64,000 bases of DNA from Psammoneis japonica. Taxonomy: Eukaryota. Numbering within the stretch: the stretch's first letter is position 1; every line of letters begins with the position of its first letter. Below are positions 1-56,139 of the stretch, piece after piece. The DNA lies in NCBI GenBank assembly GCA_008632985.1, contig QPGO01000269.1, forward strand, positions 1 through 64,000, given 5' to 3'. The position numbers and the translations under genes are program-made. Below the pieces are notes generated by a model. It saw nothing but the letters and a program-made list of their open reading frames with translations. It did no database searches and was not told where the DNA came from.

Positions 1-2
1 CT

Positions 3-749
3 TGCGGCGGTGTCGACTTCGCGAACGGACCTTGTGATGCCCAAGATCATTGTGACGGTTCAGGTGGCTGTGTGGACAAGAAGCAACCGTTAACATTTGA
101 ATGCAGCCCGCCAGAAGGCCCTTGTCAGCATGCTGCGCATTGCGATGGCGAGACCGATGCATGCCCCGAAAAAGAATTCAAGCCTGCCACAACTGTTTGT
201 CTCGGGGACGGCAGCGACGCCTGCAATCCCGGCGAGCATTGCACCGGAACCGACGCTGATTGCCCAGAAGACATTGACCACAACAACGGTGGCTGTGCGT
301 TCAAGTGTGGAACAGACCAGCACATGTGTGGCGTTAAAGCTGGCCACGGTGGCGTCGAAATGAGAGCCAGAGGCAAAAACGTAATTCTCAGTGTTGGCGG
401 ATGCAATGTTGGCAACATCGACGACACGCACGAGCTCGATTGTCTCCAGTGCCAGCCAACCGGCGGTGATTTAGGCAGCATCAGACCGCAGGATGGCGAT
501 TGCACTTGCGGACACGGTGTGTCGAACTGGGCTGTTCTTGTCTGCGAGGATGATGGCGAGGGCAATCCCACTTGGTCTTGCTGTGGCAAGTGCGAGGATG
601 GCGATGGATGTTCCACCATTGACGGTGCTCCTGCTGAGTGCCCTGACACGCTCACTGCACGCCATTTGATTGGTTTGCGCCATTGGGGCGTGGATCCGTC
701 TGGATGTGCAGGAGTGGTGGATGGATGGATGGATGGATGGATTGGATGA
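3..749 (+). pseudogene. 3' part of a Cys-rich disintegrin-like repeat protein gene (cut by window edge), probably mutationally eroded
   Basis: Frame open from nt 3 (CGGVDFANGPCDAQDHCDG...). Repeats C-x(4)-C-x-G-x(4)-CP (CQHAAHCDGETDACP, CNPGEHCTGTDADCP). No Tyr in ~250 codons, His at the E-Y-C position, and the frame runs into a (GGAT)n microsatellite. Confidence 0.6.
717..748. repeat. (GGAT)n microsatellite
   Basis: ggatggatggatggatggattggatga seen directly. Confidence 0.9.
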
Positions 750-1564
750 CGACGGAAATTTGGAAAGTTGTGATGGAGGACAGCTGGATTGACAGTGAAT
801 TGGATTGGAGCGGCGGCTCGTGAGTGGAGGATACATGTGAATGCATGTTTGAACGAAAGAGGGCTCGGCGGAAGATCTAAAGAAGACGAGATGGCGGAAG
901 AGTCCCTGTTTTTGCATTTGCGATTTGAAAAACAGGAAAGCCTTGGTCCGTGAGTTGAACACAAGAACTGGCGATGTATGAAAAAACCCTCATGGATGCA
1001 AGAGAAAAAACCAACTGCACTGGATGGACAGCGTTGACATCTAATGGGAGCTCGGTGCGGTTGAAACATTGTGTGTAAGTAGAAACAGTTCAACAGTTGT
1101 CGTTTGCGATTGTTCGAAGCAACACCGTGCAACGAGCGGCGTTCGGAAAATGGTGCCGAAATCTGCGATGGAGCAATGCGGCCAGTTCGACTCAACACAA
1201 CGGCGAACGAAGCAAAACCTGCAACGTTTGTTGATGGATCGGGTCATCGACGCGAACACAACGATGCCATTGGAGCAGCAGTGGATTGCTCTTCGCAACA
1301 AGTCGCACTGATGGCGAAAAAGAAAAGCAAGACGCTTGCTGCCATCGGGGGCGTTGTCATCATCAGTCCGCACAGGCAGTGTTCATTCGAGTGGTGTGGC
1401 ATGTTCTTTGAAAGCACAACATCGCACACAGGTGCAAAGCAAAAGAGCGAAAGTGCACGTTTCGAAACACAAAGATGGAAGCCTAAAGCTGCTTCGGATG
1501 AGTGTGGCAATGTTCTGCCGCATGTTCGTGTGGTTTCGACAAAGACGATGGATGAGGCCTGGGT

Positions 1565-1772
1565 TGGGGGAAGTCTCCAGCCAGCTGCTGGCTGAAGAAT
1601 TTTATGTGGGATTTGCACTGAAAGAGTCTGTCGATCTGTGCATTAGGGAGTTTTGGTGAACGCTGGACAGACTCGTTTTCTTTAGCGTGCGTAAAAATTG
1701 CACTTGCAAAACCCCCAAACGCACTGACGAGCAGACTTTTTTCAGCCAGCAGCTGGCTGGAGACTTCCCCCA
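1565..1772. mobile_element. 208-bp MITE, copy 1 (TG...CA ends, 32-bp perfect TIR, 4-bp TSD GGGT)
   Basis: TIR tgggggaagtctccagccagctgctggctgaa at both ends; gggt at 1561-1564 and 1773-1776; second copy at 7705-7912. Confidence 0.92.
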
Positions 1773-2149
1773 GGGTTCCGTTGCCTGTGCACGACCATGT
1801 TGGGGGAAGCTCCACAGGGTTCTTGCACTGGCAACAAAGATCAATGCCTTGAGCCTCCAAGCGACGCTCAATCCATGGCATGCTGCCGCGTGCATGAGGG
1901 AATTGCTGGTGAACCGCCGCCGCCGCCCTCTCCTCTGATGCATTGACCTTGCGCTGCGCCTCCATGCGACGCAAAAAGTCGTGTTCTTTCACATCGCCGA
2001 CCAAACCACCAATGTTGGTCTGTCAATGTTTCCAAAGAGCAAAAGATGATGAGTGTTTGCATCATGGTGGACAACTGTGCATGAATGGTCACCAACGGAG
2101 CGAGTGGCCACCGATGGAACGAGTGGCCAACAATGGAACGATGCGAGTG

Positions 2150-2477
2150 CGGTGCTGCGAATTGCTGGACAATTGCGCGACACACGTGCCCGAAGGGTGA
2201 TTGTTGCTTCGGGCACGAAATTCAAGCTTTGCGCACGTAGAGACCGTAGAAAACACACCAGCATTCGAGAATGTCCGATTTGTGTAGATCACGCAGCACA
2301 GCACCACAGAGGTCATTGATGAAATTGCTTTGACGACTCATGCGACTGCAGCGAGATTTTCAATGCCACATGCCATGTGGAGTGGACATCTGCGCGAAGG
2401 AAGAATGTTGCTTCGGGCAATGACATTCGACCTTCGGGCACGTGCATCGCGCAATTGTTTTGCAATTTGCAGCACCG
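2150..2477. mobile_element. ~330-bp MITE-like element with ~48-bp imperfect inverted repeats
   Basis: cggtgctgcgaattgctggacaattgcgcgacacacgtgcccgaagg matches the reverse complement of 2431-2477; internal cttcgggca repeats; no clear TSD. Confidence 0.65.
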
Positions 2478-2547
2478 GCACCGGTTTGCATGGATGCGGC
2501 ACTTGACAGGCGCCGCCAAAGACGAATGCGCGCGGCTCGTGCGCGGA

Positions 2548-2692
2548 GAAAAGTGCGAGGTCGCTCACAAAGTGCGAGGTCCGGAAGTGCGCATGACGTC
2601 GGAAAGTGCGAGGCCGGAAGTGCAGTGTGCACGACATCGGAAATAAAGTGCGAGGTCTGGAAGTGCGCACGACGTCGGAAAGTGCGAGGTCA
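2548..2692 (+). repeat. Degenerate minisatellite (aagtgcgaggtccggaagtgcgcacgacgtcgg-type units)
   Basis: aagtgcgagg occurs five times with interleaved ggaagtgc...cgacgtcgg. Confidence 0.85.
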
Positions 2693-4659
2693 AGAAAAAC
2701 ATGAGCTCGCAATGGTGAGTTGGTCACAGACAACAGTCGAGCGAACGGGCACCACGAGACTGCACAGACAAAGGCACGCTGTGGATTTCGATGGGCAGTC
2801 AAGTTTGATTTGAAGGACGGTTCTCATGTTTCTCGTGTGACAATGAGACAAAAACAGGGGGAAACGTCAAGCCTGACGAAACCACAACGCCACCGAAACG
2901 CTTTGCACAGACACCATGGTGTCAAGTGCGACATTGTGGAAGCATCAAACGACATCAAAAGAGCAGAACGACGAAAGTGCCGTGTACAGATTGCTCCTCG
3001 CCCTTGAGCACACGAGGAAAAGTCAAAATGTGACGCGTTTGCCGAGAAACAAAGCCACGCAGCACTTGCCATGAGATTTCCATGCACCTCGGTGCATGAC
3101 AGAAGGGCACTGAGTGCCAAAGCGCTGAATGCAGCAGTCGTTTTCATCATGGGGTGCCGCATTGTTCGCTCAACAATGCTCGTTTTTTTGTTTTTTGACA
3201 CTGTTCAAAGCACTAGTTTTTTTGCGAGAGATCGACCCTCCAGCACCGGTTCTGTCACAACAAGGTAGAATCTACTGGTGTTTGCACCAGAGATGAAGAA
3301 AGAGTTGGCAAAGGCAACATCCAAGTGGGCGCACCACAGTTCTTGGCCCGTTCATTTTCTACATGGCCTGGCACAACCCAAATCTGTGTAGATTCAGCAC
3401 ATTTCGCCCTGTGGAACAGTTTTTGGGTGTGTTTTCTGGCTCACGACGCAAAACAACACGCAAAATGACACGGACAATGGCGTTTCGCCGATTTCAAAAA
3501 TGCGGTTGTTTCTGAGGTACTTTGTAGTGCACTCTCAACGGAGTGTCACATGTCATGGCACAAGGCATGTGATGAGCTCGAGAGTGCACAGGTTCACATG
3601 GGCAGATCATGGTGAAATTTTGAACTGAAGATTGGTGTTGACACCGCCGATTTTGTTGCATCAACACGCAACTCATGCATCACCATTCATGCTGTGCATT
3701 TCGTTGAGCACTCATGCGCTCATGTTCTTTCAACTTACACACACATTGTCTTTCCGCATTGTTGTTTTGTTCTGTAGGGTCTCCCTTGCCATGGGCCATC
3801 CCTGAGAGAGAAGTGCTTGCTTTGAATGTCGCTTCTACCTTGCAACGGCCACGGCAGTCTGACGACAAGTCCAAGTCACAGATGCAGCATCCGGATGACT
3901 TCACAACAAATGTGGAAGCTTGGGTCTGTGGTGTCTGAAGATGTTCAAGCTCTCAGCAGCTCAGATTTGTCGTCGAGCAATTTTGACGCGCATTTGATGT
4001 GCCTCCAGAAGGTGATGCGCAGTTTTGTTCGACAGAGAAACGAGCCATGGCGATTGTGATGGCTTACATTGAGTCTCACAGATGCAAGGTAGTTTATGAT
4101 GTGGAAATGTGTGACTCATTTGCCTCATCTGCTAAGCCTGTGCAACACATTCAGGTGTCAAAGTCGGGGCAAATTGTGCACAATGCCAAGTCTCCAAAAA
4201 CAGCACAAGAGTGCAAGCCCAAAAGAAGAATTGGCTTTGCAACTTATCATGGGAGTGTAGAGCTTATTTTTCTGGGGCATCATGTCTCTGTTGTTTTCAT
4301 GGAGTGGACATTCACTGGTGTTGTTGCCGCCAATGTGCGAGTTCGCCTTGACAACACGTTGCACTGCATTCTCTGAGAGTTTGGAATGAAAAAACAACTT
4401 GCATTTACATCACTCTATCATAACAGAAATGTATGAGCTATCCCTGGCCCTTTTGGAGAAATGGGGCAAGTGAAAGAGGAGCTACAGAAAGATGCGGACG
4501 ACGCCATTTTGATGGATTGTCGTCAGGTGGTGTGTCGAGAGGAGTCGTGATGGAGTGCCGCTTTGTGTTTTTGTACTGCGTCTATGTAGGAATGTACGTG
4601 CTTGGCTCTCGTGTAGTTTCTACGTAAAAAGTGTACCAGGCGATCTCTGGACCGCCCTC

Positions 4660-5210
4660 TTAACAATCCTTCCAAAATCGATCTGTCCTTTCTATGCAAG
4701 GATTCGGTAGCTGTCCAACGCATGGAAAAAGGCGGAGAAATTCAAGCTCTATTTAATGCAGTTCCTGACATCTTTTCCAGTGAATGTTAAATAGCCGGTC
4801 TTTGTCCAATCTAGGAATGTCACCGTTCAGTCTGCCTAGACAGATTGCCCCACTATCAGTTTTTAAGAGGGTATAGGACAAACGTTTAGTTAAAATATAG
4901 AAAATGTCCATACATTATTCCAACCCATCAAAAATGCGGAGACATACTCTATCCATTTAACGAACCTGACATCTTTTCCATTTAATGTTAAATGGACTCT
5001 TTGTGTCATGTCCAAGAATTGCTGTTCAGTGCTTTTACGATTAGAAACACATTGCCCCACTATCAGCAGTTTTAGTCACGAACGGAGAAACAGTTAGTCG
5101 TAGTTAAACGAATGCCTTGATACGCAGTTACTCCAACGATGAAAAGCGTGAGTCAGGCCATTTAACGCACTGACATCTTTTCTTGTGAATGTTAAATAGT
5201 CATGTCCGGG
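4660..5210 (+). repeat. Non-coding dispersed repeat with ~204-bp internal periodicity; paralogous to 18124-18620
   Basis: taacaatcc..ccaaaatcgatctgtcctttctatg shared with 18124; ctgacatctttt...aatgttaaat recurs near 4765, 4965 and 5170. Confidence 0.8.
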
Positions 5211-5349: not shown

Positions 5350-8300
5350 ATCGCATGCCTCTTCTTCCACTGCCTTCTCTTCCGCCACGCCGGTCCTTCT
5401 CTGACGAGATTTTGGCATGTGAGAAGAATGAAAGAGGTGGCCGCGGAGGTGGCCCAGAAGAACAAACTGAAAAGGAGAAAAAGGGAAGGAAAGAAAAAAA
5501 AAGAAACAAAGAAGAGAAAAAGAGAAGACATTGCTGGGCCAGCTGTCAACTTGGGGCCCTTGGCTGGGCTTGTGCCTGCAAAGCAGCTTGTCTGTAACTT
5601 GAGGTGCTGTGGTTTTGTGCTTGACAGCAAAGCTCCCGCAGCATGCAACCATGGAGTTGTTGTGTCAGTCTGTGACAGCTTCACAATGGTGTCTTTTGTG
5701 AGCATTTTGCTGCCAGTCTGCCATGGCTTCTTTTGGGCAGCTTGTTGTCCAAGCCTTGCCCCACCAGCTTGGCCACTGCTGTGGATCTACACCTTCTTCA
5801 TTCTCCAAAATTCAGTGCACACTTTGGCGGGTTTGGCTCCGTTGTGTTCAAACAATTCTCTGAAGTCTCCAAGTGAGAAAACACGGTGTCATCCTCTTCA
5901 AAAGCTCTTGACAAAAATCCCCATCGACAAGCACTGGCCTTCCCATCACATGTCATCAGCAGACCAGCACCTGCCTCAACAAGCTCACAACACATCTCCT
6001 GTGGCAGCATCTGTGGATGCTGTGCCCAAGTTTTGGCCTTGTGTGTCACAAAGTCTTGAGAGAACTTGTGTGACAAGCTTTGTCACCTGCTGCCACCTTT
6101 GGATTTCCAGTGCAGCCACAGCTGCTGCAGGAGGCTCATCCAACAACAGACAAGACAGGAGAAATTTCACATGCTTGTTGCTGCACTGCCAAGGAGAGGG
6201 GTTTTTAATGCCTTGCTCTTGCCAGTTCCCACTGGGACCTCAAATTGACCTGCAACCTTCTTCATTCCTGCTGCACTTTGCCTTGAATTTTGGATGGCCA
6301 GCTGAGCAAGAAGACCCCCTGACTGCCTGTGTTTCTCAGCTCATGTCTCTGGCTTTGTGACACATGGTGCAAAGCAACATCATAAAAATGCTTGTCGTTG
6401 TGCTTTCCCAACACTGTCCCATCAGCCAGTGCCTTGTGGCACAGCTCTTTGCTTGCTGGCTCCCAACTGGGAGCTCCTTGTGGTCTGGTGTCTTCTTCAA
6501 GCAAACCACACCCCATTCTTGCCCAAAGAGGGGGGTCAGACCAATGCACATGCCTGAAAGAGACCCTGTGTCACATCATGAGGTTCCACAATGAAAACGA
6601 GTGAGATGAATGAACAACAACACATCAGCTGCAACGGGAGCGGTTTTCTGCTTGTCTCTTCATTGTGCGAGTGTTGCGTGAAGCCTTTTTGATGTTGAAT
6701 CTACGCCACAACACACTGAGAGTGTACGCCACAAAATTTCAAAATTTCATTGATTTTGCACTGGGTCTGCGCCACTTGGCGCATGTAGAATCTCATGTAA
6801 AAATGATGTGCGCCACTGTGGCACAAAATTTGTGTGCACCCTGAACCATTCTGTGCCACTGGTGGCGCAGGGTCTGGCATGTTTTTTACACTTCTGGCAG
6901 GAATTTTTCCATTGTGACATGGACTTGCCCGATCTCTCTTGGCATCACACCACCCTGCCTCAAATTGCTTCCCACCTGCCCGTTCTCCCCCTCCTCTGCA
7001 TCTTCCTCCTTTTGCCATCCTTCTACTGCCACCCTGCTTTGCTCACTTTGTCTTTGATCCCTTGACCCCTTCCTGCTCTCCTCCCAGGCCCCCATCCTTT
7101 TGTTGCCCTCCCCGAGTCTGCCACTTCCTTCACCAACTTGGCACTGCTGTCAACCCTTTCTTCTTTCCTTTTCTGGCACTTGCTTGCACAATGGATCCCC
7201 AGATCTGGCCCTCCACATCCGCGAGTGCCTCCGTGGCCATGCAGCTGCTGGAGAACCTCCCCTCCCTTTTGTTTTTCAAGTTCCCACCTCCCTCTTTTTC
7301 TTTGACAACTTTGTCCTCCATGTCAACGATTGCCATGCCGACTCTTTTGGTGCCCCTGACATTGTCATGCCCAACCCAAGCTTTGCTTTGCCTCTCTCTC
7401 CCACATGACTGTGCCATCTTCCCTTTTCATCCTGCCCAACCCTTCCCCAGCTTTTGCAGCTCCTTTGATGCCTGCTTCTGCTGACCCTTCCACTTTTCAT
7501 TCATTTCATCAGGCTTTCCCAAACCTTGACATCTAAAAAAAAATGCTGTCACAGCACAAAAAAGAAATTGTTCTCTTGAGAACCGCAGCTGGCATGAGTC
7601 AATGACTGCATGTTCTGCTTCATCCATGCTCTGCCAGCAACTGAGGAAAAGATTGGGCATGTTGTCAGCAGCCAATGACTCTCTTGTGGGCAGACAACAC
7701 ACACTGGGGGAAGTCTCCAGCCAGCTGCTGGCTGAAGAATCTTGTGTGGAACTTGCACTGAAAGAGTCTGCCAATCTGTGCATCAGGGGGTTTTGGTGAA
7801 CGCTGCACAGACTCATTGTCTTTTGCGCACGTAAAAATCCCACTGGCAAAACCCCCAAACGCACTGACGAGCAGACTTTTTTCAGCCAGCAGCTGGCTGG
7901 AGACTTCCCCCAACACACACACACATCATTTTCCCCCGCTGTCCTCCTCAAAAGCTTTGGTGCATCATTTTCCACTTTCTTGTCAGATCCAAGTCCAAAA
8001 TTCTGCACAAACATTGTGCTGATTGTGCAAGCATGTGTTTGACAGTGCGCAGTGGACGCGACTGTTTGCAGAGCACATTTTGGAGGAAGTTGCAGGTGTG
8101 GCCATTTGCCCAGCACATTTTTTGTGATCACATTGGGCAAGACAGAAAATTTGGGTTGTGTGTCAACAGGAGAACAGGAGAAGTGGCTGGCATGTTTGCA
8201 TCACTCTCTTGACTGTGGCAGCATCTTTTGCAGGATGTTGTCATGCAGCACTGCTGGGCCAGACAAAAATGTGCTCTGCTCCTCATCAAACCATGCAAAG

Positions 8301-8730
8301 CTTGCAATGCCAGAGACAAAGAGAGGCAGGGTTGTTCATGGCATAGAGCTGAGCACCCCTGAGCAGATGGGGAAATGACTCATCTGCAACATTGGTTTCT
8401 TTGCGGGTGCTGTGCAGGTGCTGATGAGAAACCCCACCTTCACAGCCTGTTGCACCTGGATGAGTGGAGCTGGCAAGACATTGGCTGGGAAGTTGTTGAC
8501 TGCACCATGTGGTTGGGCAAATTTGGGATTGTGCACAAACCAAAAGACCACCCATCATTTTGTTTGACAACTGCCCCATGCTGGTGGTCAAAGCAGCCCT
8601 GGTTGGCAATGAGATTGCACTCAGTTGGCATCACCTTTTGGAGCAATGACCACTGCTGGGCAGGTGTGTGGTCCAGTCATCACTGGAATGCTGGGGCTGC
8701 ACCACCACTGCCATGTTGCACCAGTGCATG
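5350..8730. mobile_element. Unclassified decayed transposon-like pieces (TpA/CpG-depleted); possible LINE-like fragment near 8370-8730
   Basis: Near-absence of TA and CG; clustered (TA/TG)CGCCAC motifs at 6700-6870; hosts MITE copy 2; no unambiguous domain recognised. Confidence 0.45.
7705..7912. mobile_element. 208-bp MITE, copy 2 (TSD ACAC)
   Basis: Same 32-bp TIR and length as 1565-1772; acac at 7701-7704 and 7913-7916. Confidence 0.92.
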
Positions 8731-8799
8731 AGAGCAGAGCATGCAATTGACTCAAAATGACAAACAAATGAACTGATCATGCTGCATGACTTGCGCTCA

Positions 8800-11700
8800 C
8801 TTGTTGGGCTGTTGCACAACTGGAGACATTGAAAAAGCAGAAGCTCAAGGTTGTGCAAACTGGCAGCTGTTGTTGTTGCAAAAGCTTTTAACTGAAAATT
8901 GTCACTGCAATGTCAACCAGAGATTTTGATGGCAGAACTTGAAATTGGAATGTGCGAGATCATGCATGGCAGACAGGTGGAATGACAGATGTCAACACTC
9001 CCTCTCAACTGCAGAGCTGCTGGCATGAGAGACTCAACCAACCAGATGTAAACTTGTCAGTGATGAGTCCCTTTCACAAATTGATCAGCAAGCTGTGGAT
9101 CATCTCCTGCAGGCTCAATCCAGATCTCAAGACCCTCCACCTTCATTCAGAACCAATGACAGGGAACACCAATGTGCTTGGTGTGTGGAGAGGGCTTGGC
9201 CATTTTTGCAAACTTGAGGCATGCTTGGTTGCCTTTATGAACAACCACAAAGAAGGGATTGTGCCATCTTTTACATCAGAGAAGGCTTTGGACTTGGCAG
9301 TGGCAGGGGTCTTGCAGCCCTTGAGTCTGAATGCATGACTCTTGAATTCTTTCAAAATTTCACAAATTGGAGTCAAGTTGCACATGGCAGCCAACACAGA
9401 GTGAAGTGCTTGGCTTCAACAGCAGAAAGTGCAATCTGCATCTGCAGCTTGGACACCCACAAAATGGGACAATCACAATGCAAGATGACGTGCCCAGTGC
9501 AAAAGACTTGATGCTGACTGGGTCTTGAGAGTCTTCATGACCACAAAGGTCAGCAAAGTTGGCATCAACAAAGCAGTTGATGTGCTTGTTGTCACTGCGA
9601 CACAGACAGAGAGTCCCTTGTCCCTGGTGCCTTGCAAATGCAACAGAGTGCACTGCGCCACAACTGCGTGGGAGTGCTTGGAAGGACAGGAGAAGCAGGC
9701 AGCTTGGTGTGTGGTGCAGCAGATGTCGGGTTGGGAGCTCAATGACAAATGCACCAACATGCCAATGACAGAATGACAACCCCAGTTCTCTCATCAAATT
9801 TGGCTCCCTCTTTGTCCACATGACATGAAGAGGTGATGCTTGGGGCAGGGGCTGAGCAGCAATCTTCCACACCAGCCATCTTGAGGACCATGTCAATGAG
9901 TCCATGCTGTGTGAGAAGAAATTCCTTGGGGGGCAGTCTTGTGAATCTCAACACCAATGAAGCCACCAACTTCTCCCTTGGTTTGCATCCTGAACACGTG
10001 GCATTGATCTCTGTCTTGAATCCCTGGAGCCTCAATCTCACATTCTAGGACAGCTCCATCCTTGACAGTGAGAACAGCATCATTGACATGGACCACACAA
10101 ATCATCCTGTCCTTGAAGAATGCTGGGCATGGGTCAACTTGCAACTGAGTCCACCCTTCCAACAAGCCTTTGCACAGCTTGTGGTCAAAGAAGCTTTTGG
10201 GGGCTTGCTTGAGTCCACAGAGACTCTTGAAAAGCTTCAACGCAATGTTCTTGGATCCCAAGCTGGTGGCAAAACACTTGGGTGGCTCTGCATGAACAAC
10301 TTCCATCATCTTGGCCTGCGCAAATGCGCTGGTGTGGTTGACCTGATGGGTTGTTCAACCTTCTTGTGGGACAGCACTCAATGTGAGATGGAGAGTTGAC
10401 CACTGGACCGCTGGAGTGCAGGTCTCAAAGCTGTCTCAACTCTCTCTTTTTGCGGTTCCTCACAGACACAGAATTGTGCCTTGAACTTGAGCAGCATGCC
10501 ATCTGGCAGTCATTTCAACTTAAAGGCCCGCGTGGACTTGAGCACATTCACAGACTTTTTGTGCTTCACAAATTGCCACATTTTGCAGCGGACTGGAGCA
10601 GATGCTTTGGTTTTCATGGCTTTGATGTGTTGCTTGGCAAAATTGCCTGAGAGAGCTTTGCAAATGTTTGGGGTGTTGGCATGGCATTTGACCTTGGCAG
10701 CATGGGTTTGATGGTCTTGAACATCCAACATGTCTTGGTCACAGTTCACCTAGATCTCAGCTGAGCAGGCAAGCTGATTCTCCAACCACAACTCTTCCCA
10801 GTGATCTGGTGGTTTGCTCTCCCTTGCAATTGAAGGAGCAACCATGGTGAAGAGATCATCAAATGCAACATGACACTGGGGAGCAATGGAGCCAGCATTG
10901 AAATTGAGGACCAGAGGAACCTCGCTGGTGTGAACATCACCAAGACCAAGAAACACACCACAACAAGAACACAGCTGCCAACATGGGAGTTTCTTCCCTT
11001 CCTGCAACTTGAAATCCAAGACAAAGATGTGACACCCCCAAATGTGGAGATCATGGAGATGATGGTGTGAGATGGCAAAACCAGCACAGATGTTGGCAGG
11101 ACAAAGGCTGTGAGTTCCAGGAGTGGCAGTGCAGATGTGGGCAGCACAGCAGACTGCCACAAGAGGCCAAACAGAGTTGTTGACACCACCACCATGCCAG
11201 TGAGTTTTTGAGGCATGCAGGATCATGGCATGTGAGCCACGTTGGATGTCAACCAAATTGAGCACTCTGCAACCCCACTTTGATGAGGAGCATTTGTGCC
11301 ACAGAAGTGCACGCATTGCTGGGAGTCATTGATGTGTGAAACAATCTGGTTGGCCTTGAAAGCACCGCCATTGGTGAGGTGAGTTTGAACGATTGCACCA
11401 CATCCCATTGCCACAGTCTCATGTGCCTGTTTTGCTTGAGAACAGTTTTGACAGCACAGAATCTGACTTGGTTTTTGATGGGGATGCAACCAGAGGTGTG
11501 GTCAACAAAAATGCAGCCGCCATCATGCTGCTGGGAGGAGGGTTTTCATTGGGAATCACAGGTGCAACCCTTGAGACATGATTCAAAGTGAGCGACACTG
11601 ACAGACTGGCCAGGCTGGAGATGCTCAGAGCTTTTGTTGCCTGGTTGTGCTCAGGGTTGGATTTCTTGACAGCAGACTGCAGAGAATGGTGGTGAGCCTT

Positions 11701-13935
11701 GGTGTGCTTGCCTGTGTTGCACTCAGTGAGATCACACTTGGATGCGGCCTTGAACTTGTCATTGCCTCAAATGGACCACCTTGGAGAAGACCTTGGATCT
11801 TTGGAAAATGGAGGTGCCCAAAGTGTGCATGCCATTCAAGGAGAGATTTCTGTCCAGCAGACAGGTTGAGATTGTCTGTGCTGCCAACATTGCTCAGATT
11901 GACTTGTGGCACATGAACAGAGCCAAGAGTTGCATGGTCAGCTGGTGAGTGGGAGGAGTGCTTGCCACACTTGAGCATGAGCTCTGGCATTTCATCCAAA
12001 ACAAACTTTGAACATCTTGCTGTTTCCCCAAAAATGAATTTTGACACCATCTTCATGGAAGAGATGCTGTGGAGAGAGCAGCCAAACCCTGGAGGTTGGT
12101 GCAAGACAGGCGCAGAGCTGAGCAGTGATGTTGTGGCCCTTTCTGACCTGAAAGGTCCATGTGACGGAGCCCTCGCCGGCAATGCACATGCCTTCAGCCA
12201 CTGCGCCAAGGATCAGCAGGGTTTGGCAGCACTTGATGGGGCCATCGAAATCATTCTTGTTGGGAGTGACAGCCTGCTGGGATGCACCAGCATCAAAGAT
12301 GACCTGGAGGTCACCCGGTCCAACATGGAAAAGGGCCCACTGGGGATCAGTGGTGAGACATGTGAGTGGGGTCTCCCCAGACATGGCACAAATCACAGCG
12401 GAGGAGGGCAGAACAGGAGATGCAGACAGATCATCCAAAGCTGGCTTTGGGGCATTGGCACAATCAATGAAACAGTGAGCATGACACAGGTCAGTGACAC
12501 CAAAAATGTCTGCACTCATGCAGTTGGTCTCATGGAATGTTTCAGCATCAAAGAAGCCTTTGTGGGAGGTCATGAGCTCCGTGCATGCGTCTTGGTGAAT
12601 TGGGTGCTGTGGTTGACACACATCAAAGGGGCGGCTTGAGACATGGGATCTGGTGGAAACATTTGCACAAGAATTCAAAACAAAATGTCAAAATGGAAGC
12701 TCTTGACATCAGATTGATCGGAGTCTTCAGACGTGTTCCAGTTCCATGTGATGCACAAAATGACATTCCCTTTTGAGCACAATTTGCGCAAGCTTCGTGT
12801 GTTGAGGTTGTTCATTAAAAACACTTGTGCATCTGGCTTTTGCATTTGATTTTGACTGTGTGCATTTAAATGATTTTTTCATCAGTGTTTTTATCTCCAC
12901 AGAACACACATCACAACATTTTTCTGTGGAAACAATGCTGACTGTGCTTGGGCACTTGCACTGCAGAGATTTCTGTGTGCAAGTTGACCACTGCTACAAA
13001 ATGCACACAGAAATGTTTTGTGACAACCTTCAAACAGCAACAACATGTGGATCTTCAAAAATTTTGGCAAAAATCATTCATTTTGTTACAACTCCTTTGT
13101 TGCAATGAAAAAAAATTGATTGCACACAAAAAAACAACAATGTGTGACTGCTGAAACTGGTCTTGTCAGTGTTGCAAAACATTGAATTTGTGTGAATCTG
13201 TGATTTTGGTGGTGAAAGCTCATTTGCAAGTCAGAGACCATGCAAGAATCACACAAATGCCATTTTTGTGCATGTTTTGGTTCACATGTGGCTGGAGAAC
13301 ACGTCTGCCACGGAAACTCAACAATCAAACAGCAACAATCAGCACAGAGACACGCAGGGTTGCTTGAGGGGGGGCAGTCTTGACTTGGTGGGGACTCGGA
13401 GAGTTCTAAACAACGCAATCTGGGTTTGATGTTGCAACAGTTAAAAACAATGACTCACAACAATGGCAGATCTGGGTCCGTGGATTGGCTCCGGTGGCGC
13501 CAGAAGAATGCACTTGCGTGCCTGTCAACGAGAAGGAGGAAGGCTCAGCCACATGCAGAATCAATGTTGACAGACTGGAGATGTCTGTCAAATCAATGGA
13601 CAATGATGCCATTTGAAATGGGTGATCAAAGACTTGTTCTTGATGACAGTCATGTTCAATGACAGTCACGTTCGATGAAAACGTGGTGGCTCGGGGCGCA
13701 GCTCAGGCAAAAGAAGCTGCGCACACTTCTTTTGAGCTCGATGACCACTTGTTGCACCAACGCATGACCAGAGATGTCAAAGGAGCAGAAGTTCAAGGTT
13801 GTAAACCAGTGGCTGTTGTTGTTGCAAAAGCTGTTGACTGAAAATTATGACTGCAATGGCGATCAGAGATTTTGATGGCGGATTTTGAAGTTGGAACACG
13901 CGAGATCGCGATAGCGCAGACATGCAGAATGACAG
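8800..13935 (-). mobile_element. Decayed Ty1/copia LTR retrotransposon (CoDi-like)
   Basis: Minus-strand order: protease (VIFDAGAS), GAG-pre-integrase (LLEWHAHFGHL), integrase (NAPHQSGVAECSI), RT (KSLCGLKQAP, VVHVND), RNase H (CFVDANFA). PPT gagagggag abuts TG at 8997. Direct repeats at ~8800-8997 and ~13745-13935. Many stops and frameshifts; probable nested AT-rich insert ~12680-13300. Confidence 0.88.
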
Positions 13936-14196: not shown

Positions 14197-16902
14197 TCAA
14201 TTCCCCCAACACAGCAATATCCGATATGTAATATAAAACGCAAATGTAATAATAGCAAAGGACCATGCTCCGACCGATCTCTTTCTTTTCCTAATCATGC
14301 AACGATTCCAGAACGCAAGTTGTGTAGTGTTTCTCTGTTTTTTGTTTTTCAATTCTCTCATGTAACAAAATATAAAACATGCAGCCAGCCAGCAACCACT
14401 GCATGCGCCTACGGAGTCACCTAAAGCAGCCGTCAAGGTACTGCGCTTCTGAATCGTGTATTGTGCACTGGTTACAGCATCACATGGACTATTGTCAGAA
14501 ACAGTGAAGGTGACCAATGCATCGGCACACTCGAAACAACCAATGCCATCAGACAAGTCGACGATGCAATCGAAACCGGTGCCGACAACCGTGCAGTCAA
14601 CCGGAGTACCGCCATCAAGGCTATAATTCACGGCATATACGGTACCACTAGGTCCTCCACCCACACTGCCAGTAAACGTAAGACTATCCAAATGACCGCT
14701 GGGAGGGACTGTTGCGCATTGTCCAGATGGCACAGAGTTTAAGGAAATTGACAAGGGTGGAATGACAGTGCCAACATCCGAGCCAGAGTAAGTACACGTG
14801 GTGGCGGGATCAGCGGGAGTGCACAATGGGCAAGCATCCGTCACCTCTACGCGGACAGTGTAGTCGCCAGGATCAAGATTCATCACTGGGCTCGCACCCC
14901 AGGGGTCACCGGAATCATCCGTGACCGAAATGACTCGATCGCCGGGGACACTGTGCGCCCTGATGCTTCCCATGAGTTCATAAGAATAAGCGAGTCTGCC
15001 GAAGCAATCACCAGTCGCGTTAACATCGACAGAAATTGGGTCATAGACCGAGACGGTAGCCGTACCCTCCGCAGAGCATGTAACGCCCAGACTGATCTCA
15101 TTCGACACCACGACAGTCCCATCGACAGACCCAGCAGGCACTTCAGTTTTAAAACCTGACTGAGTCGTAGAACCGGTAATAGTGTAAGTAGAGCTGCTAT
15201 GCTGAAAAGTCCACGTGTAGGTGTAACCGCTTTCAGTTCCGCCGCCAGGGGTTGCCAAATAGTCAAAGCCAGTGTCGCAATGCTCTGTAAGGGTGGCACT
15301 GGCGGTGACGTCCGGATGAATATCGATAGGTTCGGAATCAGTCCCCGAGCAGGTAGGCAAGTCAATCTCCGTTACCACAACGCTCACCGAGTGTTGACCT
15401 GCACCAGCAACTTCAATGCCGTTGCAATCGGTAGAAATAGGATCCGGGCTGTCACCCACAAACCATTCACAAGTATAATCAGCCGTCGAGAAACCAGTGA
15501 CACCAACCGTCACACCATGCGCCGCTCCATTGCAATGATCTTCGGTGGTGATAATTGGCACAGGTGGAGTGCAGCGGGTAATGACAACATTGAGAGGCGT
15601 TTCGGAGCATTTGCACTTGGCCTTGTTGGCAGGGGTGGTACCGAGCTGGTACGCATCATAATTAGTATTTGGTGGTAGAGCAATGGTTTCAAAATCATCG
15701 GGGCAAAGCTTATTTGCATCGCCCGGAATCTTCCAACCAACGCAGTAAGGGACATTGACGACTTCAGAAGAAGAAGTGGAGCTGCCGGCGCCACATTGCA
15801 CTTTGATGGTGCCCGAGTTCACAACTCTCTCAACGTTTGCACCACCACCAATATCTCCACATTCATCACTCTCGGGAGCATCAAGGTCCTCAAGATCACC
15901 AACCCCACTCGTCGTAAACCACACATGGGTGCAAGTTCCGGCTTCTGCATTACCCTCCGAGCTCTGGTCGTACCAAATTCCAATATCACTGCGCTTCTCG
16001 TTGGAGCTGGTAACAAGTACAGTCTCGAGTTCACCAAAGAATGTCTGGTCCTCAACGCAAGAGAAGCACGGGGGGTCATAGCCAGCGGGGCATGGGACAA
16101 TATCGAGAGGTGTACCATCCTCGTCATGTGCACCTGTAATCGTGGATTTGGCAATTCTAACGTCGTTGGCCTTGCAATTGAGTGCATTTGGATCTTTAAT
16201 GTTGATAAGGCCCGCAAGCAGGACTGCATCTCCCATGCAACCAGTGTCCTGTGTCACGTCGCCATAAAGCTTCCGGTGGGCATGATGATGCCAGGGATCA
16301 AAGGGTTCACCGACATGGCGAAGGTGAGGGTGCTGCTTGTTTTATGAATATGGATAGCAACGACATGCATCGCCAGATTTCAAAGATGATTGGGTTCGAA
16401 GGTGTTCGCCGTGTTCGAGTGTGAAATTGAAAAGGGACGACGGATGACAGACACGAAAACCCGGGAAGAGTACATGACGTCATAGATTGAAAATGACGTC
16501 ATATATTCAAGATGACGTAGGCGAGAGAGAAGCGAGAGCAGATAGAGAGAGAAGCGAGAAGCGGAGCGAGCAAAGTGCCGATACGGTAGTACGAGCAGGT
16601 AAAGAGGCGAGAGAGCAAGAATAAGAGAGAGCAATAAGAAACGTTAGAAATGATCATTGCAAAGAGCAGTCAAGCACAAAAATGCAAACGATTGACACGC
16701 TTCTCATCACAAAGGCTCGTCGTGATGAGTGCGCGCGTCGCCGGGACGACTGCAAAAACAACGATACAAGACGGGCGCGGGTCCAGACAACATCAGCGAT
16801 GCGATGAAGAAGACGCACCTTCAGCTCCGAGGCCCATCCTCCTCCCACCATTGTGGCCAAAGCCACTCCAACTAGCATCGAATGCTTCGCGACAAGCTTC
16901 AT
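14197..16902 (-). CDS. Secreted Cys/Thr/Gly-rich protein with PKD/Ig-like beta repeats (exon 1 16902-16819; exon 2 from ~16335)
   Basis: Exon 1 MKLVAKHSMLVGVALATMVGGGWASELK is signal-peptide-like and ends at AAG|GTGCGT; phase-0 join to the 686-aa ORF via HRKL propeptide-like motif; YTCEW/YTYTW strand motifs. True C-terminus uncertain (may end near 14390). Confidence 0.8.
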
Positions 16903-18849: not shown

Positions 18850-21014
18850 CAGATTCAGAAGTGTTGTTTGTGGCATCATCTCAAGAAACCAGAGAGCATG
18901 AAGATCCAATCGCCACTTGGGTCCAAGAAGGGAACAAAGACCTCAAGCTCTGTCCTCTCATTGAGGAAAATCAGAGCACCAAGGATGACGAGCTCAAGGA
19001 TGTTCTCTGCGACATTGTGCCTTGCAAATGGCAGCACCAGTCAACTCTTCAATGTTTTGAAATTTTGAAACACATGCCTTTAATGAGTTGGTCAAGTTTT
19101 TGTGGAGCACATCTGGAGGTTGCCACCGAAGGATGTCTTTGACTCCACCCATGTCAAGGCTGATGCAAGCAATGAACCTGGATCAAAAGCCAATGATGGG
19201 TCTAATCATGGACCCAGATTGGTTGCCAATCTGGCACCAAAAAACAATCTGAGTGGTGTGCACATGCCCTTTTTCACTCAAAAACATTGTTTTTGTGGTG
19301 TGTCAAACATCTGAGACATTTTGTTTAAATGATTGCGTCAATGGCTTTTAAGCAGCAAAACATGCAGATGGAATTTGAACCAAGCAACAGCCAAAATGGC
19401 CATGGCTTTCAGGGACCATGACGGCCTGCTTTTTTCAACCTTGTGGAAAATTTTTAATGACGCAGCGAGGGCCGCAGCATTTTGTGCAGTTTGTGTCATC
19501 AATGACAACAGTGAGGGTGCTTGTTGCAGGCTGCAGTGCAGCACAAGAGGACTGGTCTGTGAGCAACAGCAGTTGAGCCTCATTTCACTCACAATTTGCC
19601 TCTGAGGATGAGCCTTTTTCCATTGCCATGTGTGTCACACCTCCAAAGTGTCGACTGACAAAAGTGGTTCAGTCGTTTGTGTCAACATGGCAGTGAAATG
19701 GGGTCCAAAGTCAATGCCATTGCATGGGCTGACTTTATTTCTTCTCATGTCTTCCAAAAATTGGCAATCAACAAATGTTTTGTTTGGTCTGTTGAGAGTG
19801 AGTTGCACTTGCACATTTTGACAAAAGTGCTTCATGCAATGTTCAAGGGTTGATTTGCACATGTGACAACTTTTGCTTTGTGTTTTTGTGCGCACATGAT
19901 TGCGGTCATAAATTGCTTGTCAGAAACCAAGCTCTCATTTTGGGGCACAATTTGGCAACCAACAACTCAATCCACCCTCAGTTTTGAATGCATGGGTGCA
20001 TGCACGAATGCACGAGACCTTTTCTGCATGCACCCACAACAACACATTTGAAGATTGTCATGTTTGAACTTTTGAAAATTGCATCAAAAGTTTGGACCAT
20101 GCATTTCATGCAAAAAGGGGCATTTTTTGCACCTGTGTGCACCCAAGTCTGGAGCAAGTCTCCAACAAGCTGTGCAGCTGTTGTGAAAAACCACTCATGA
20201 CACGGAAAAGTGCTTGGTCACCAAAAGACACCAGCAAAAAAAATGACGTGGGAATTGCAGGCATGATCCAAAGTGGCATTGTTCAAATGTCAATCACATG
20301 TGGTCACATTGCAATGATGAAAATGCTGCTCACAAAGAAGAGTTAAATGCTGCGGTCATTCAGGCAGTTCAAAAAACACTCAAGACAAGTGCTTTGAACA
20401 AAAATGCAAATTGCCAGAGCAAAAAGTGTGGCTCTGACCCCCTCAGTGAAAAAAACTGTCATCAATTTGAAAAACTGATGTGCAGCAATTCTAAAGGATG
20501 ACCAGCTCCGCTTCAGAGATCTTGCACCCTGACAGACATTGGGAAGCCCAGAAAAAGGGTCAAAGTGATTTGCACTGGTCCAGCAGTCATCTCTTGCATG
20601 AACACCTCAGGTGAAGCAAAAAATGAGCCTCTGTGCATTCTCCTTGAGACAGCAGAATGTCGTCAACCACAATTTGCACAAATTCATGCAGAAACTGAGA
20701 ACAAAATTTTCCACAACCAAATTTGGGAAACCAAAGGAGGGCTCTTCAGGAATGATGGTCAGTGTAAAATCCAGCTCCCTTTGCTGGAATTTGACAAACA
20801 TGTGATGATGGAGACAACAGCACATGTTGACAACACCCCTTCTTCTTTGAGTCATTGTGACATGATCATGGAATGCAACTTGATGGCCAGTCTTGAGATC
20901 ACATTGGACTTTGCAAACAAAGAAATCAAATGGGAGGATGCAACCACACCCATGAAGAATGTTGACACACTCTCAAGTGCTGATGTTTTCAAGTTGATCA
21001 TCAGAGACCTGTAG
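18850..21014 (+). mobile_element. Decayed Ty3/gypsy gag-protease fragment with an internal insertion
   Basis: DDELKDVLCDIVPCKW gag-like segment; WETKGG...LLEFD...VD...CDMIMECNLMASLEITLDF...IKW...PMK matches the retropepsin C-terminal YDMIIGRDL pattern. Confidence 0.7.
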
Positions 21015-21465
21015 AAATGGCCTTGAGTCACAGGCCATCGAACCCCACCATCTCATGGCGTGCCCACGCGCGCAAACACTGGGTGCTCCCCCTCCTGATT
21101 TAATTTGACATTCACTTGTTAGCGCCAAAATGTTTTCACACTTTGCTGATTGCCATGTCACTCAATTGTTGCTCCCAGACATGTTTTGTTCAATTGGCAC
21201 TTGTTGACTTGAATGCCAACATGCCAAGTCACATGGCTGCATCATCTCATTGACGGTGGACAGTTGCATTGTGTCCCAACTGAAAAATGTTTATTTTCAC
21301 ATTGCATGTGGCATTTTTGCCAAAAGTTCTGCATTTCCATCCTCATTCTGGATGTCAATCATTCCGCCAAATTTTCACCTTTTTCTGTGTCCCCTCCACA
21401 ATCCCTCCTCACCGGCAAATCACAATGTTTCATTTGCACCATTCACCTGAGCAATCACGCATGGG

Positions 21466-21665
21466 AACATGGAATTCTTCTGCAGAGCAAAACACCAGCA
21501 GCAGCAGTTTGTCAGCTGTGGCCGGTCTGTCAGCTGGCTGTTGCATGTGAGCCACCACCACACTGTAAAAAATGGAGATGCACAAACAAACAAAATTTTG
21601 CTGTGTGTCACCCTGTCACATTGTGCAGAAAACCAGTCTGCAAAAAAGATCACCCAAGCACATTG

Positions 21666-21717
<52 letters not shown>

Positions 21718-22239
21718 GCACAGATCTGATGATGATTTTTTGTTGGCTGGGGGCTGTCTGCTCAGCAAGTGCATGTGTGAGGAGCCCACATGCAATGTTG
21801 CCTGGCTGTGCAGTGATCATGACAGATGCTGCAGCAGGACAATGAAACTGGGTCACACAGATGGGAAATTGGGCAGGTTTGGGGGGAGGGGTGGCAAGGT
21901 GCATGTGTGCAGCTTTGCTTGGTGGAGCAGTGAGACCAAGTTGGTCCACAAGAGACATGGCAACAACCACAAGGCTGGGGCTCCAGAAGCCCCACCAGAG
22001 TGGCATGGTGGAGTGATGAGTGAGACCCAAGTGGGTCACAGATGGAGCATTTTTCCATGCTGTGATGGCAGCTTGGAAGATGGCAGAGGGGTGAGAGCAT
22101 TGGCCACAGGTGTGTGCAGCATGGGCTGCCGGGTGCTGGAAGGAGGATTCAGAATTTCAAGGTGGAGCTGGGTGAGCTGGCACTGGATGATGATGGTCAG
22201 CACCAAATGGCGCAGGCAGTGGGAGAAGCATCCGGGGGC
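21466..22239 (+). repeat. ~770-bp direct repeat, copy A (contains (GA)n(GACA)n at ~21668-21717)
   Basis: Colinear with 27513-28278, e.g. shared caggtgtgtgcagcatgggctgccgggtgctggaaggaggattcagaatttcaaggtggagc. Confidence 0.88.
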
Positions 22240-22811
22240 ACTCTCCACAGTGAGACCATGCATTGATCATTTTGACCAAGCCCAAAGGTTGCCACATGGA
22301 CTCATGCAGAAGTCAGATGGATGTTTTGTTGCAATGCCTCTGGAATCCCAGCATGAATCTGCATGCACAAAAAAATTTCTGTGGAGAACTCTGCAGGAAA
22401 CATGCCAGGAGGCATGGCAACAAATTGTCTGCATGCAGCCCTGGCACATTGTCTGTCTTGCTTCCACAAGAGTCATCTGTGAGGACACAACATTGTGTGT
22501 GCACAATGCATGCAACAACAGTCAACACATGGACTCATGATGGAGAGTGATCCACCCAGGGGGGCATTGAGGTGATGGTCAATGGTGAATGGGATGAAAT
22601 GCTGCACCATCACGCAGCGAGACCTGTCCAAACTGGACCATGCCTGTGCACATGCCTGATGTCATGAAGCCTTTTTGCAGACATCACCATGTCACACCCA
22701 TGCAGTGCTTTCCCAACTGCATCACACTTTCATGCACACCCCCACTTCATCCACACAAGAATGTGTCGCTGCCCTGATTTTGTGTTGTTTGCACTGATGA
22801 AGGTTGATCAT

Positions 22812-24382
22812 TTGTCAACGGGGACCCCCCCGTAAGTCTGTGCATTGACCGTGGATGCTTCTGCCCTGTGACAAATGTGCAATGTGTTTCCCACCACAAA
22901 AACATCAAACCAACCATGAAGATTGCAGAGGCCACAACGTTTCTTGTCACTGCATTTTTGGCCAGCTTGCAAGGTGTGTGGATGGATCCTCACTTTGCAC
23001 ATGAGGCACTGCAGCATGGTGGCTTTCTGGACTTCACAAGTCCAGAATCTCATCTGCCCTCTGATGCACCTCAAAGTTGGTTGCAGCCCCATGCACCAAC
23101 AACTGCTGCAAGGGATGTGGGATGTGCTGATGCGCTGTCGCTCGGTCCGGTGACAACTCCAGTGCAGATGCCATGAAGCACAGGAGTCAAAGAGTGTTTG
23201 CTTCTGAGGATGCAATGATTTCCAGAGAGCATCCATTCAATGATGATCAGAAACAGGCTGTCCAAGAAAACTCAATGCGATGGGCATGTTGGGCATTTTA
23301 CTGCACGGGAGTCACTCAAGCATCAACGACCTTTTGAGACATCAATGCAACGCTTCACAGATCATTGCCATTGGAAGAAACCCAGAATCAACAGTTGTAG
23401 AATGACAACCTGGATTGTCCCAGAGCTGTGGCAAATGCTCTGTCACGCCAACAAAAACAGCAGTGCTTCTAGTCACAGCATGGTTGTCCCAGCTCTGCAC
23501 ACTTTTGCAGTGGTCCTTGCCCTTGCCGTTCTCTGATGGGTGGGCATTGCGAACATCCCAAAGGATTCTTTGGTTTCCATTGCCTCTGACAATGCATGCA
23601 TTTGCTTGACACTGCCAATCCACAAAAGACACCGTTTGTGGTCACTTTTGTGTTCAAAACTTCTCCATCAACAAAGAGACAGCAAGGGGCATTCCATGCC
23701 TCCCACTTGTGACTCTTCGTTCATTTCTTTTCATCATTTGGGTGGCCTTGGTGGAGGCTCATGTTTTGTTGCTGCTCAGCAATGGGGACATTTGAGACAC
23801 ACAATTCTTGTCATCACAAAAATCTTTCTGCTGTCAATCCTTTTGATCAAATCTCACCCATGGAATCAGAACAAATGATTTGCAGGAAAGGATCAACAAC
23901 ATGACAGCGGCAACAACCAAAGAAACATTTGTGAGACACGAGACGTTGACGCAACACCACAAAGAACATTGACATTTTGCGACTTGCTCCTGGCACTGAA
24001 GCTCTTGTTTTCTTCCATGCCAGCACCATGCATCATGTGCCAGGATTGCATGCTTCTTTTGTCACTTTTTTCTTTCATTTGGCTGGGCTTGGACGAGTTT
24101 GGCGCATCATTGCTTGGTGAGACGGCAACATTCAGAACCACAATTGTCATCATTGAAAAAACACTTTCACCTGGCAATCCTTTTCTCACCAAAACTTGGT
24201 GGCAGGAGCAGAACAAACGATTTGTTGAAAAGGATTGCCAGCAGAACAGCTGGAACAAGGTTGGCATGCAACAGACTGAAACAGAAATTGTCGCGGTGAC
24301 AACACAAGAAGGGTTGCGTTTCACTTGCAAAAAATGCTCCATCAGATGGTCATACAGACTTGCGGGGGGTTCCCATTGACAA
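22812..24382. mobile_element. ~1.6-kb TIR DNA-transposon relic, superfamily unresolved
   Basis: ttgtcaacggggacccccccgtaagtctgt versus reverse complement of acagacttgcggggggttcccattgacaa (~30-bp imperfect TIR). Confidence 0.7.
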
Positions 24383-28278: not shown

Positions 28279-28471
28279 GGGATGAGGAGGCAAGAAGATG
28301 CCCGCTTGCGGTTCTGTCGAGAGACGCACGTCCCCCAAAACTGCCACGTCATCATTCCCACGTGCTCACTTTTTTTCTGTCATCTTTCTCGGTTCTCGGC
28401 ACAAACATTGTCTCTCTCTACATATTACAAGTACTAGCAAGCAATAAGACAGTCTTCCAACAACACCAGTG

Positions 28472-56136: not shown

Positions 56137-56139
56137 GGA

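Follow-up and report, generated by a model that had tools for sequence, protein, structure and literature searches.

A single-copy Cys-rich gene beside MITEs in Psammoneis japonica bears a TpA-directed mutational footprint and was probably recoded as collateral damage

The Cys-rich repeat-protein gene at the very start of contig QPGO01000269.1 of Psammoneis japonica (assembly GCA_008632985.1) is depleted of TA dinucleotides, and this deficit lies at the DNA level. We think it probable that this host gene, which adjoins transposable elements (TEs), was collaterally recoded by a TpA hypermutator of the type described in Bigelowiella, and probably to its detriment. Below, we describe the block in which the gene lies, the gene and its relatives, the protein columns that were recoded, and the miniature inverted-repeat elements (MITEs) beside it, and we weigh the alternative readings in the discussion.

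RESULTS

TA depletion of the block and the gene

The window, by which we mean the whole 64,000-nt stretch analyzed (C270:1-64000), is the first 64 kb of its contig in an assembly of 91.4 Mb and 597 contigs. Along it, gene-rich stretches (about 37.5 TA/kb) are interspersed with blocks of 3 to 8 TA/kb. The features at its start are as follows.

1 to 4000 (no strand): TA-depleted block holding the Cys-rich gene; 7.5 TA/kb vs 37.5 in TA-normal parts; CpG largely kept to about 3250
3 to 686 (+): 3′ fragment of a single-copy Cys-rich repeat-protein gene, codons 1 to 228 of the visible frame; 5′ part beyond the contig start; seven homologues of the C-terminal domain
3 to 272 (+): three disintegrin-like Cys repeats (C..A.G.CD..E.C.G type), residues 1 to 90; weak PF00200 match
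273 to 647 (+): Cys-rich C-terminal domain without a name, residues 91 to 215, opening at the homologues' G-Y-T-[FY]-K-C; placed by homologue alignment
651 to 686 (+): terminal basic motif LTARHLIGLRHW, with counterparts at the ends of homologues (R-R-x-L-R/G...W); TGG at 684 to 686 encodes an original Trp or arose from TAG
687 to 749 (+): 20-codon tail to TGA, with (GGAT)6 at 719 to 742; C-poor and G-rich like the 3′ flanks of the family
786 to 1099 (+): non-coding 3′ flank common to two other Cys-rich repeat-protein genes (C67, 76%; C65, 62%)
1565 to 1772 (no strand): MITE-like element of low copy number, its terminal inverted repeats 35 nt long; second copy at 7705 to 7912
2150 to 2477 (no strand): high-copy young MITE, 1.4 kb downstream of the gene

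An earlier note on this DNA had described an open frame of about 250 codons without Tyr and with few TAs, and this is what we found: the frame at 3 to 746 (+) is open for 248 codons with no Tyr, 11 His, and 27 Cys, ends at TGA (747 to 749), and carries 5.4 TA/kb and 71 CG/kb. The description of the frame as otherwise intact is right in that there is no stop inside, but the open reading frame (ORF) is cut by the contig start, and the statement covers a 3′ fragment only.

Codons 1 to 228 contain 4 TA in 684 nt vs 22.5 expected (Poisson P = 2e-6), the expectation coming from 10 coding stretches hand-chosen as TA-normal controls. At codon junctions, a codon that begins with A is preceded by T in 1 of 46 cases, vs 358 of 1,644 in the same control stretches (P = 1.7e-4). 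These junction steps are independent of Tyr, which places the deficit in the DNA. CpG is intact in the gene (40 C-G junctions observed vs 40.0 expected). Three of the surviving TA steps in codons 1 to 228 lie inside Leu or Val codons and one at a junction; none is in a Tyr codon. The lack of Tyr would by itself be weak evidence, since the relatives compared, 153 proteins (the top 150 of 1,087 plus 3 from a separate search), contain 1,421 three-repeat runs, of which 898 are also without any Tyr.

The non-coding 3′ flank is depleted too, with 6 TA in 440 nt vs 15 in 370 and 34 in 520 in the two other copies. Seven TA steps of the C67 copy differ in the window, where six of the seven read TG or CA.

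Within the block at 1 to 4000, the best-surviving TA contexts are CTAC/GTAG and CTAA/TTAG, unlike in the deep TA-poor blocks of the window (5500 to 13500, 19000 to 28000, and 52500 to 59800). There, TA falls to 3.3/kb, CpG is gone too, and the best survivor is TTAA (25 observed vs 40.7 expected). Pfam searches with 10 ORFs of the TA-poor blocks gave two hints below the cut-offs and nothing more.

The TA-normal parts of the window encode host genes, among them a GST-like protein (28448 to 30139), a bestrophin (30225 to 31580), a UAA transporter (31915 to 33024), a protein with a weak ankyrin match (43820 to 45121), a C2 domain protein (45271 to 46158), and an AMP-binding enzyme (61020 to 62033). 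Two TA-normal Cys-rich genes are also found in the window. One (14200 to 16341, −) lies between two TA-poor blocks, has 22 Tyr in 714 codons, and gave no match in a Pfam search; it has an N-terminal domain without a name in common with the C65 paralogue described below (27% identity, E = 3e-12; L005 4254-4900). The other (39976 to 41643, +) has many GACC-type Cys repeats with Pro/Thr linkers and 66 Cys in 556 codons, likewise without a Pfam match.

The gene and its relatives

As far as its sequence tells, the gene belongs to a small family encoding modular Cys-rich repeat proteins, of which it is an ordinary member present in one copy. The Cys repeats match PF00200 at E = 0.017 and 16.3 bits, under the curated cut-off of 35.1; homologues P0107 and P0113 pass that cut-off through their many repeats, and L019 does not. 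The repeats have 1,087 relatives at E ≤ 0.001; those with names, from a Myxococcales bacterium and Saprolegnia parasitica, are hypothetical proteins. The RGD/KGD loop of disintegrins binds integrins; neither tripeptide occurs in the visible translation, which is a 3′ fragment of the protein.

The C-terminal domain is common to seven sequences, namely the C65 paralogue and six metagenome proteins, which are 27 to 32% identical to the fragment. It had no PDB match, no usable Atlas hit, and no Pfam match, and no relative among the viral contigs, phages, and prokaryotic genomes searched. An AlphaFold prediction from a 5-row alignment had a mean pLDDT of 32.3. Two homologues start with an apparent signal peptide, judged by eye; as the gene's own 5′ end is missing, its protein is, by comparison with these relatives, probably secreted. 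An adhesion role would be a guess.

The gene had been taken as either multicopy or TE-adjacent. It is the latter, with MITEs 0.8 and 1.4 kb downstream. The multicopy reading fell: a DNA search with positions 3 to 700 gave a single match in the assembly (which may be incomplete), and DNA and protein searches together turned up a single copy plus a distant paralogue, about 34% identical. Neither a close paralogue nor the 5′ part was found in the assembly by searches with the DNA, the gene's own protein, P0107, the C65 domain, P0005, or PF00200. Two matches were considered as the missing copy or 5′ part and rejected; that on C108 is a different gene, and that on C3 has no homologous ORF. The C108 gene (L032 196-3084, −) is modular and combines disintegrin-like repeats with an extended region rich in Pro and Ser; it is TA-normal and lies near TA-poor blocks at a contig start.

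The C65 paralogue has long near-identical tandem repeats and is TA-normal, with 4 Tyr in the 912 residues of its repeat region. A one-base frameshift within the near-identical repeats (L004 ~1440) may be an assembly error or a sign of decay. Its C-terminal domain stops early (L004 2071-2300). Farther downstream, RLLRS...GWMD is encoded in a different frame and bears a loose likeness to the window tail; this likeness reached a score equaled by 3 of 500 shuffles and concerned one of 13 segments tried.

A 3′ flank of about 300 bp is found in the same orientation at three large Cys-rich repeat genes (window 786 to 1099; L008 1482-1795 on C67; L004 ~2225-2580 on C65), and its 22-nt core occurs exactly three times genome-wide. 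The C67 gene has HYR-like repeats and a C-terminus of another kind. The flank is possibly the mark of a mosaic gene family that shuffles domains in a common cassette, or else a conserved 3′ untranslated region element. Further stretches of the window (2509 to 2593, 2735 to 2777, 2851 to 3154, and 3322 to 4661) show homology, in part inverted, to DNA on both sides of the C67 gene (L010, L011). Window positions 4201 to 4661 retain TAs lost by the C67 copy, in which 14 of 16 read TG or CA.

His and Cys at columns where homologues have Tyr

The following codons are the candidates for recoding or the additional Cys of the gene. Because the homologues are only 27 to 32% identical, the ancestral codons are deduced and not read from an unedited copy.

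48 to 50 (+): His16 (CAT), candidate Tyr-to-His, at the QDHC column; Tyr in 5/7 and His in 1/7 homologues; weakened by native DHC in the paralogue
237 to 239 (+): His79 (CAT, GEHC), candidate Tyr-to-His; Tyr in 2/7, Phe in 2/7
294 to 299 (+): Cys98-Ala99 (TGT GCG); homologues have Tyr in 5/7 (aromatic in 7/7) and Thr in 5/7
321 to 323 (+): His107 (CAC), candidate Tyr-to-His; Tyr in 4/7, aromatic in 7/7
441 to 443 (+): Cys147 (TGT), extra Cys; Tyr in 2/7, Cys in 0/7
507 to 509 (+): Cys169 (TGC), extra Cys; Asn in 5/7, Tyr and Cys in 0/7

The comparison with paralogue and homologues that the earlier note had called for reveals an enrichment. In the alignment, His and Cys are concentrated where the homologues carry Tyr: at columns with at least two Tyr among the seven homologues, the window has His (16, 79, and 107) or a non-structural Cys (98 and 147) at 5 of 11, vs 10 of 195 other columns (Fisher P = 3.6e-4). 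The other 6 of the 11 read K, F, L, T, W, and L. When each homologue was taken in turn as the focal sequence, His or a non-structural Cys appeared at 1 of 55 Tyr-rich columns. The aligner mildly favors His opposite Tyr, and for 6 of the 11 His (43, 93, 115, 143, 221, and 227), the homologues have no Tyr and no His in the column, so that the table offers no explanation.

At the clearest site, the homologues' G-Y-T-[FY]-K-C reads G-C-A-F-K-C in the window. Two adjacent TA-to-TG edits, one within a codon and one at the junction, explain both Tyr to Cys98 and Thr to Ala99.

The idea that His stands where such repeats typically have Tyr survives in part. It holds for QDHC and partly for GEHC (the columns of His16 and His79), and it fails for AAHC, where Tyr is found in 0/7 homologues. 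Among 2,044 motif cases in the 153 relatives, the residue before Cys is T in 422, S in 336, Y in 232, N in 225, V in 196, F in 180, and H in 55, which means that Tyr is not the typical residue. DHC is native in 11 occurrences in the repeats of the TA-normal C65 paralogue. Three His in a row are nonetheless unusual, with 0 of the 1,421 three-repeat runs.

The proposal that Tyr was recoded to His or Cys without gaining stops agrees with the TA-to-TG/CA signature, with the 5 of 11 Tyr-rich columns that are now His or Cys, and with the open frame. The case that the earlier note had named as refuting, orthologues that likewise lack Tyr and share the C-terminal extension, did not turn up among the homologues: all seven carry 4 to 9 Tyr in the aligned span, and the extension is absent from the five that have the terminal basic motif.

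MITEs beside the gene

Of 308 candidate matches to the MITE at 2150 to 2477, 40 were scored, and 39 of these proved to be other full-length matches; the 9 best-scoring sisters were aligned. The window copy has lost 18 of 21 consensus TA, all to TG (7) or CA (11), compared with 3 of 26 CG; 6 of 228 other columns differ. All three surviving TAs are in GTAG. Its only two private changes outside TA and CG (columns 33 and 247) are both A to G, possibly off-target activity of the same process.

Sister copies have lost 0, 0, 1, 1, 2, 2, 3, 12, and 13 of the 21 TA, such that seven of nine lost 0 to 3. The MITE family is young, because six of the nine sisters differ from the consensus at 0 or 1 other columns. 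We infer that the window MITE had already inserted when it was edited, in place, and the editing episode looks recent. The two heavily edited sisters (12 and 13 lost) each have a TA-poor flank; sister L022 also has a TA-poor flank but has lost only 2 of 21 TA, which counts against a domain rule. In a check of strand context, itself a weak test, the MITE had no YTAR site, and YTAY sites in the three edited copies read TG in 5 cases, CA in 3, and TA in 4.

The gene has kept a share of its TA (4 of 22.5 expected) similar to that kept by the MITE (3 of 21). This similarity would fit editing of both in one episode, with the reservation that the MITE strictly dates its own editing only.

The TGG codon at 684 and the tail

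The frame does pass through TGG (684 to 686) after RHLIGLRH and into a microsatellite, as had been pointed out. Five of the seven homologues end in a basic motif (RRRFLRA, RRNLRTSWSLF, RRNLRNAFGLW, LTRRRLGAHLSW, and KRLLRGLW). None of these five has the 20-residue tail, and one ends a single residue past LR. The window tail crosses a tetranucleotide microsatellite, and TGG-684 is the sole codon before it that is one TA edit from a stop; all these points favor stop loss. On the other side, Trp is the last residue of three of the five comparable homologues, in one case at the 12-residue register of LTARHLIGLRHW, and a TAG at this site would have stood in TTAG, among the best-surviving contexts of the block (6 observed vs 12.9 expected). 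A change point in composition falls at 701 to 713 and does not single out 684. We regard a TAG-to-TGG stop loss at 684, judged from these sequences, as nearly a toss-up.

A TAG of the C65 paralogue placed opposite TGG-684 was rejected, the local DNA alignment scoring 69, less than the best of 200 shuffles (76), and the placement being absent in 12 other settings. A reading of (GGAT)n as an edited (GATA)n is unneeded, as GGATGG is also found in the TA-normal C65 flank.

DISCUSSION

Collateral recoding by a TpA mutator

Our favored account is that the gene, which lies on the margin of a block rich in MITEs and TEs, was exposed to a local DNA mutator that converts T-A to T-G or C-A across the block (A to G on either strand at TpA) to about 80 to 85% saturation. 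Targeting would follow from position in a marked domain and not from the gene's own copy number. The chemistry is probably adenine deamination on DNA, with A converted to inosine and read as G, as has been proposed for Bigelowiella. Such a deaminase would act at TpA within repeat-marked domains and would reach at least 1.4 to 2.1 kb from the high-copy MITE into the gene, where codons would suffer missense but no nonsense changes as collateral damage. Three things are seen at the locus or strongly implied by it: the signature, the organization in domains, and TA loss after insertion. For the enzyme and its targeting, we adopt, as most likely and by analogy, the hypothesis of Mettrop et al. as set out in the accessible text of their preprint (10.64898/2026.01.13.699255). 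Matches to PF00383 (deaminase) occur at 9 places in the genome and say nothing on this point, because 12 of 14 control genomes also have matches.

Damage, diversification, and other readings

The earlier note had argued that a gene recoded without gaining stops is being diversified rather than inactivated. This step does not follow. In a full enumeration, no TA-to-TG/CA edit turned a sense codon into a stop, and 228 codons would remain free of stops in the absence of selection with a probability of 0.82 to 0.72 at a background of 1 to 1.6%, which is what the private non-TA changes of the window MITE amount to (substitutions only). The open frame and the retained Cys thus carry little information on function, because TA edits can neither make stops nor destroy Cys codons. 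The gene reads Cys and His at two columns that are aromatic in all seven homologues, and it has three Cys at positions without Cys in any homologue. There is no sign in the sequence that selection protected Tyr codons, on roughly 5 to 6 that would be expected. It seems more likely that the edited copy was impaired than improved, through missense damage without nonsense.

That the mutator recodes secreted Cys-rich proteins to useful effect, leaving the edited gene expressed with new Cys and His and possibly a longer tail, we therefore hold to be improbable. In its favor are the open frame of 248 codons, a process unable to create stops, the retention of all 14 Cys columns invariant in the seven homologues, and the fact that Cys98 and Cys147, with Cys169 as a third extra Cys, could in principle pair; in fungi, repeat-induced point mutation (RIP) is reported to raise the allelic diversity of nearby genes, according to the accessible text of PMC10823647. 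Yet neither the Cys nor the frame could have been lost to TA edits, and their retention is no evidence of selection. No Tyr codon survived, although three TA in Leu or Val codons and one at a junction did, and the two fully aromatic columns were lost. Searches of assembly DNA and proteins found no copy array to diversify, and TA-normal relatives adjoin the same kind of TE blocks unedited. The broader proposal is more doubtful still. It holds that the TpA mutator doubles as a diversifier, by which genes for secreted, modular Cys-rich surface proteins that lie at block borders and share a flank would be recoded wholesale (Tyr to His or Cys, Thr to Ala, and stop read-through) without nonsense and be expressed with new options for disulfides or metal binding.

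An already silent or dead copy, truncated or captured by a TE, might have been edited as repeat-like chromatin without consequence. The position at the contig start, the failure to find the 5′ part elsewhere in the assembly, the MITEs 0.8 and 1.4 kb downstream, and the 3′ flank and further stretches common to the surroundings of the gene near the C67 contig end would all suit this idea, which we consider unlikely: 228 codons are free of stops and frameshifts and collinear with homologues, CpG is intact, unlike in the deep TE blocks of the window, and a contig break is to be expected inside a tandem-repeat gene whose paralogue has long near-identical repeats. It is very improbable that no mutator acted on the gene and that naturally Tyr-poor Cys-rich repeats, with chance or codon preference, account for the TA deficit. 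The Tyr-free runs of the relatives (898 of 1,421) and the 4 Tyr and native DHC in the repeats of the C65 paralogue agree with such a view, which cannot explain the single T-A among 46 junctions, the TA loss in the non-coding flank, the 18 of 21 TA lost in the adjacent MITE, or the Cys and His at aromatic columns of the non-repeat domain. Hardly credible at all is an assembly or base-calling artifact at the contig end; the gene does form the first 750 bases of the contig, and the paralogue's one-base frameshift may be an assembly error, but what is seen are transitions restricted to TpA on either strand, along 4 kb and again in blocks inside the window. We know of no sequencing error that gives both-strand transitions confined to TpA.

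Comparison with known systems

Collateral recoding by a TpA mutator has a close counterpart in Bigelowiella natans, where the accessible text of the preprint by Mettrop et al. describes TpA-only A-to-G/T-to-C hypermutation of a single-copy region in integrated NCLDV/virophage DNA, seen de novo in a subset of mutation-accumulation lines at about 1,000-fold above background, and names an ADAT2-like deaminase as the candidate enzyme (10.64898/2026.01.13.699255). As in that account, the changes here are TpA-to-TpG/CpA transitions on both strands (18 of 18 in the window MITE and 6 of 7 in the flank), they form local domains (7.5 vs 37.5 TA/kb; seven of nine sister MITEs lost 0 to 3 of 21), and they affect single-copy DNA (one DNA match of the gene in the assembly); the TpA-depleted coding sequences described there include domains of likely host origin. 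The difference lies in the targets. There, viral inserts are affected, and the NCLDV region has about 1.8-fold lower TpA than the rest of the genome, whereas here a near-saturated footprint lies in MITEs, TE relics, and a host-type gene. No relative of the C-terminal domain of this gene was found among the viral contigs, phages, and prokaryotic genomes searched; its repeats have bacterial and oomycete relatives, and its neighbors are MITEs.

RIP leakage in ascomycetes, in which a defense mutator of repeat-rich domains spills into non-repetitive DNA, is similar in that it pseudogenizes or diversifies genes for secreted proteins, and dissimilar in that RIP is a C-to-T process with a CpA-to-TpA bias and a gain of TA, as given in the accessible text of PMC10823647, while TA is lost and TG and CA are gained here. 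With respect to a RIP-style duplication trigger, the gene is single-copy, but high-copy MITEs lie within 1.4 kb. RIP creates stop codons through its gain of TA. The process in the window, by contrast, removes TA, removes Tyr, and cannot create stops.

Diversity-generating retroelements offer another likeness to the window gene, namely adenine-directed mutagenesis of a surface-type protein gene. They depend on a reverse transcriptase and a template repeat, and within a short variable region they replace A by any base. The gene differs in having no template copy (positions 3 to 700 give the single DNA match) and in changing A to G at TpA only, on both strands, in coding and non-coding DNA.

At the protein level, tandem Cys-rich repeats in large modular proteins are found in the disintegrin-like Cys-repeat proteins of Myxococcales, oomycetes, and metagenomes and in diatom adhesives, the latter compared by description only from the accessible part of 10.1101/2023.03.06.531300. 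The C-terminal domain without Pfam, PDB, or Atlas match sets the window gene apart from both.

Implications

Our literature search, which mostly covered work outside subscription journals, found TpA hypermutation described for neither diatoms nor host genes, apart from the Bigelowiella preprint, whose supplementary tables S6 to S11 may list host genes. That 2026 preprint on chlorarachniophyte viral inserts, in its accessible part, is also the sole literature case that we found of a natural sequence-specific A-to-G DNA mutator. The P. japonica locus would add the same signature, near saturation, in a second genome, with positional action on a young MITE and a single-copy host-type gene. We regard the footprint as real and the example as moderately informative, the gene being read from its sequence as a lone edited 3′ fragment.

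A defense of this kind would come at a cost to neighboring genes, which are recoded but never truncated, so that annotation will call them intact genes. A simple test of selection for edited genes would be to compare TA survival in Tyr codons with that at codon junctions. Should edited genes prove to be expressed and kept, proteins would have a new source of variation in this process, and if the diversifier reading were true, it would constitute a eukaryotic route to surface variation through A-to-G editing of DNA.
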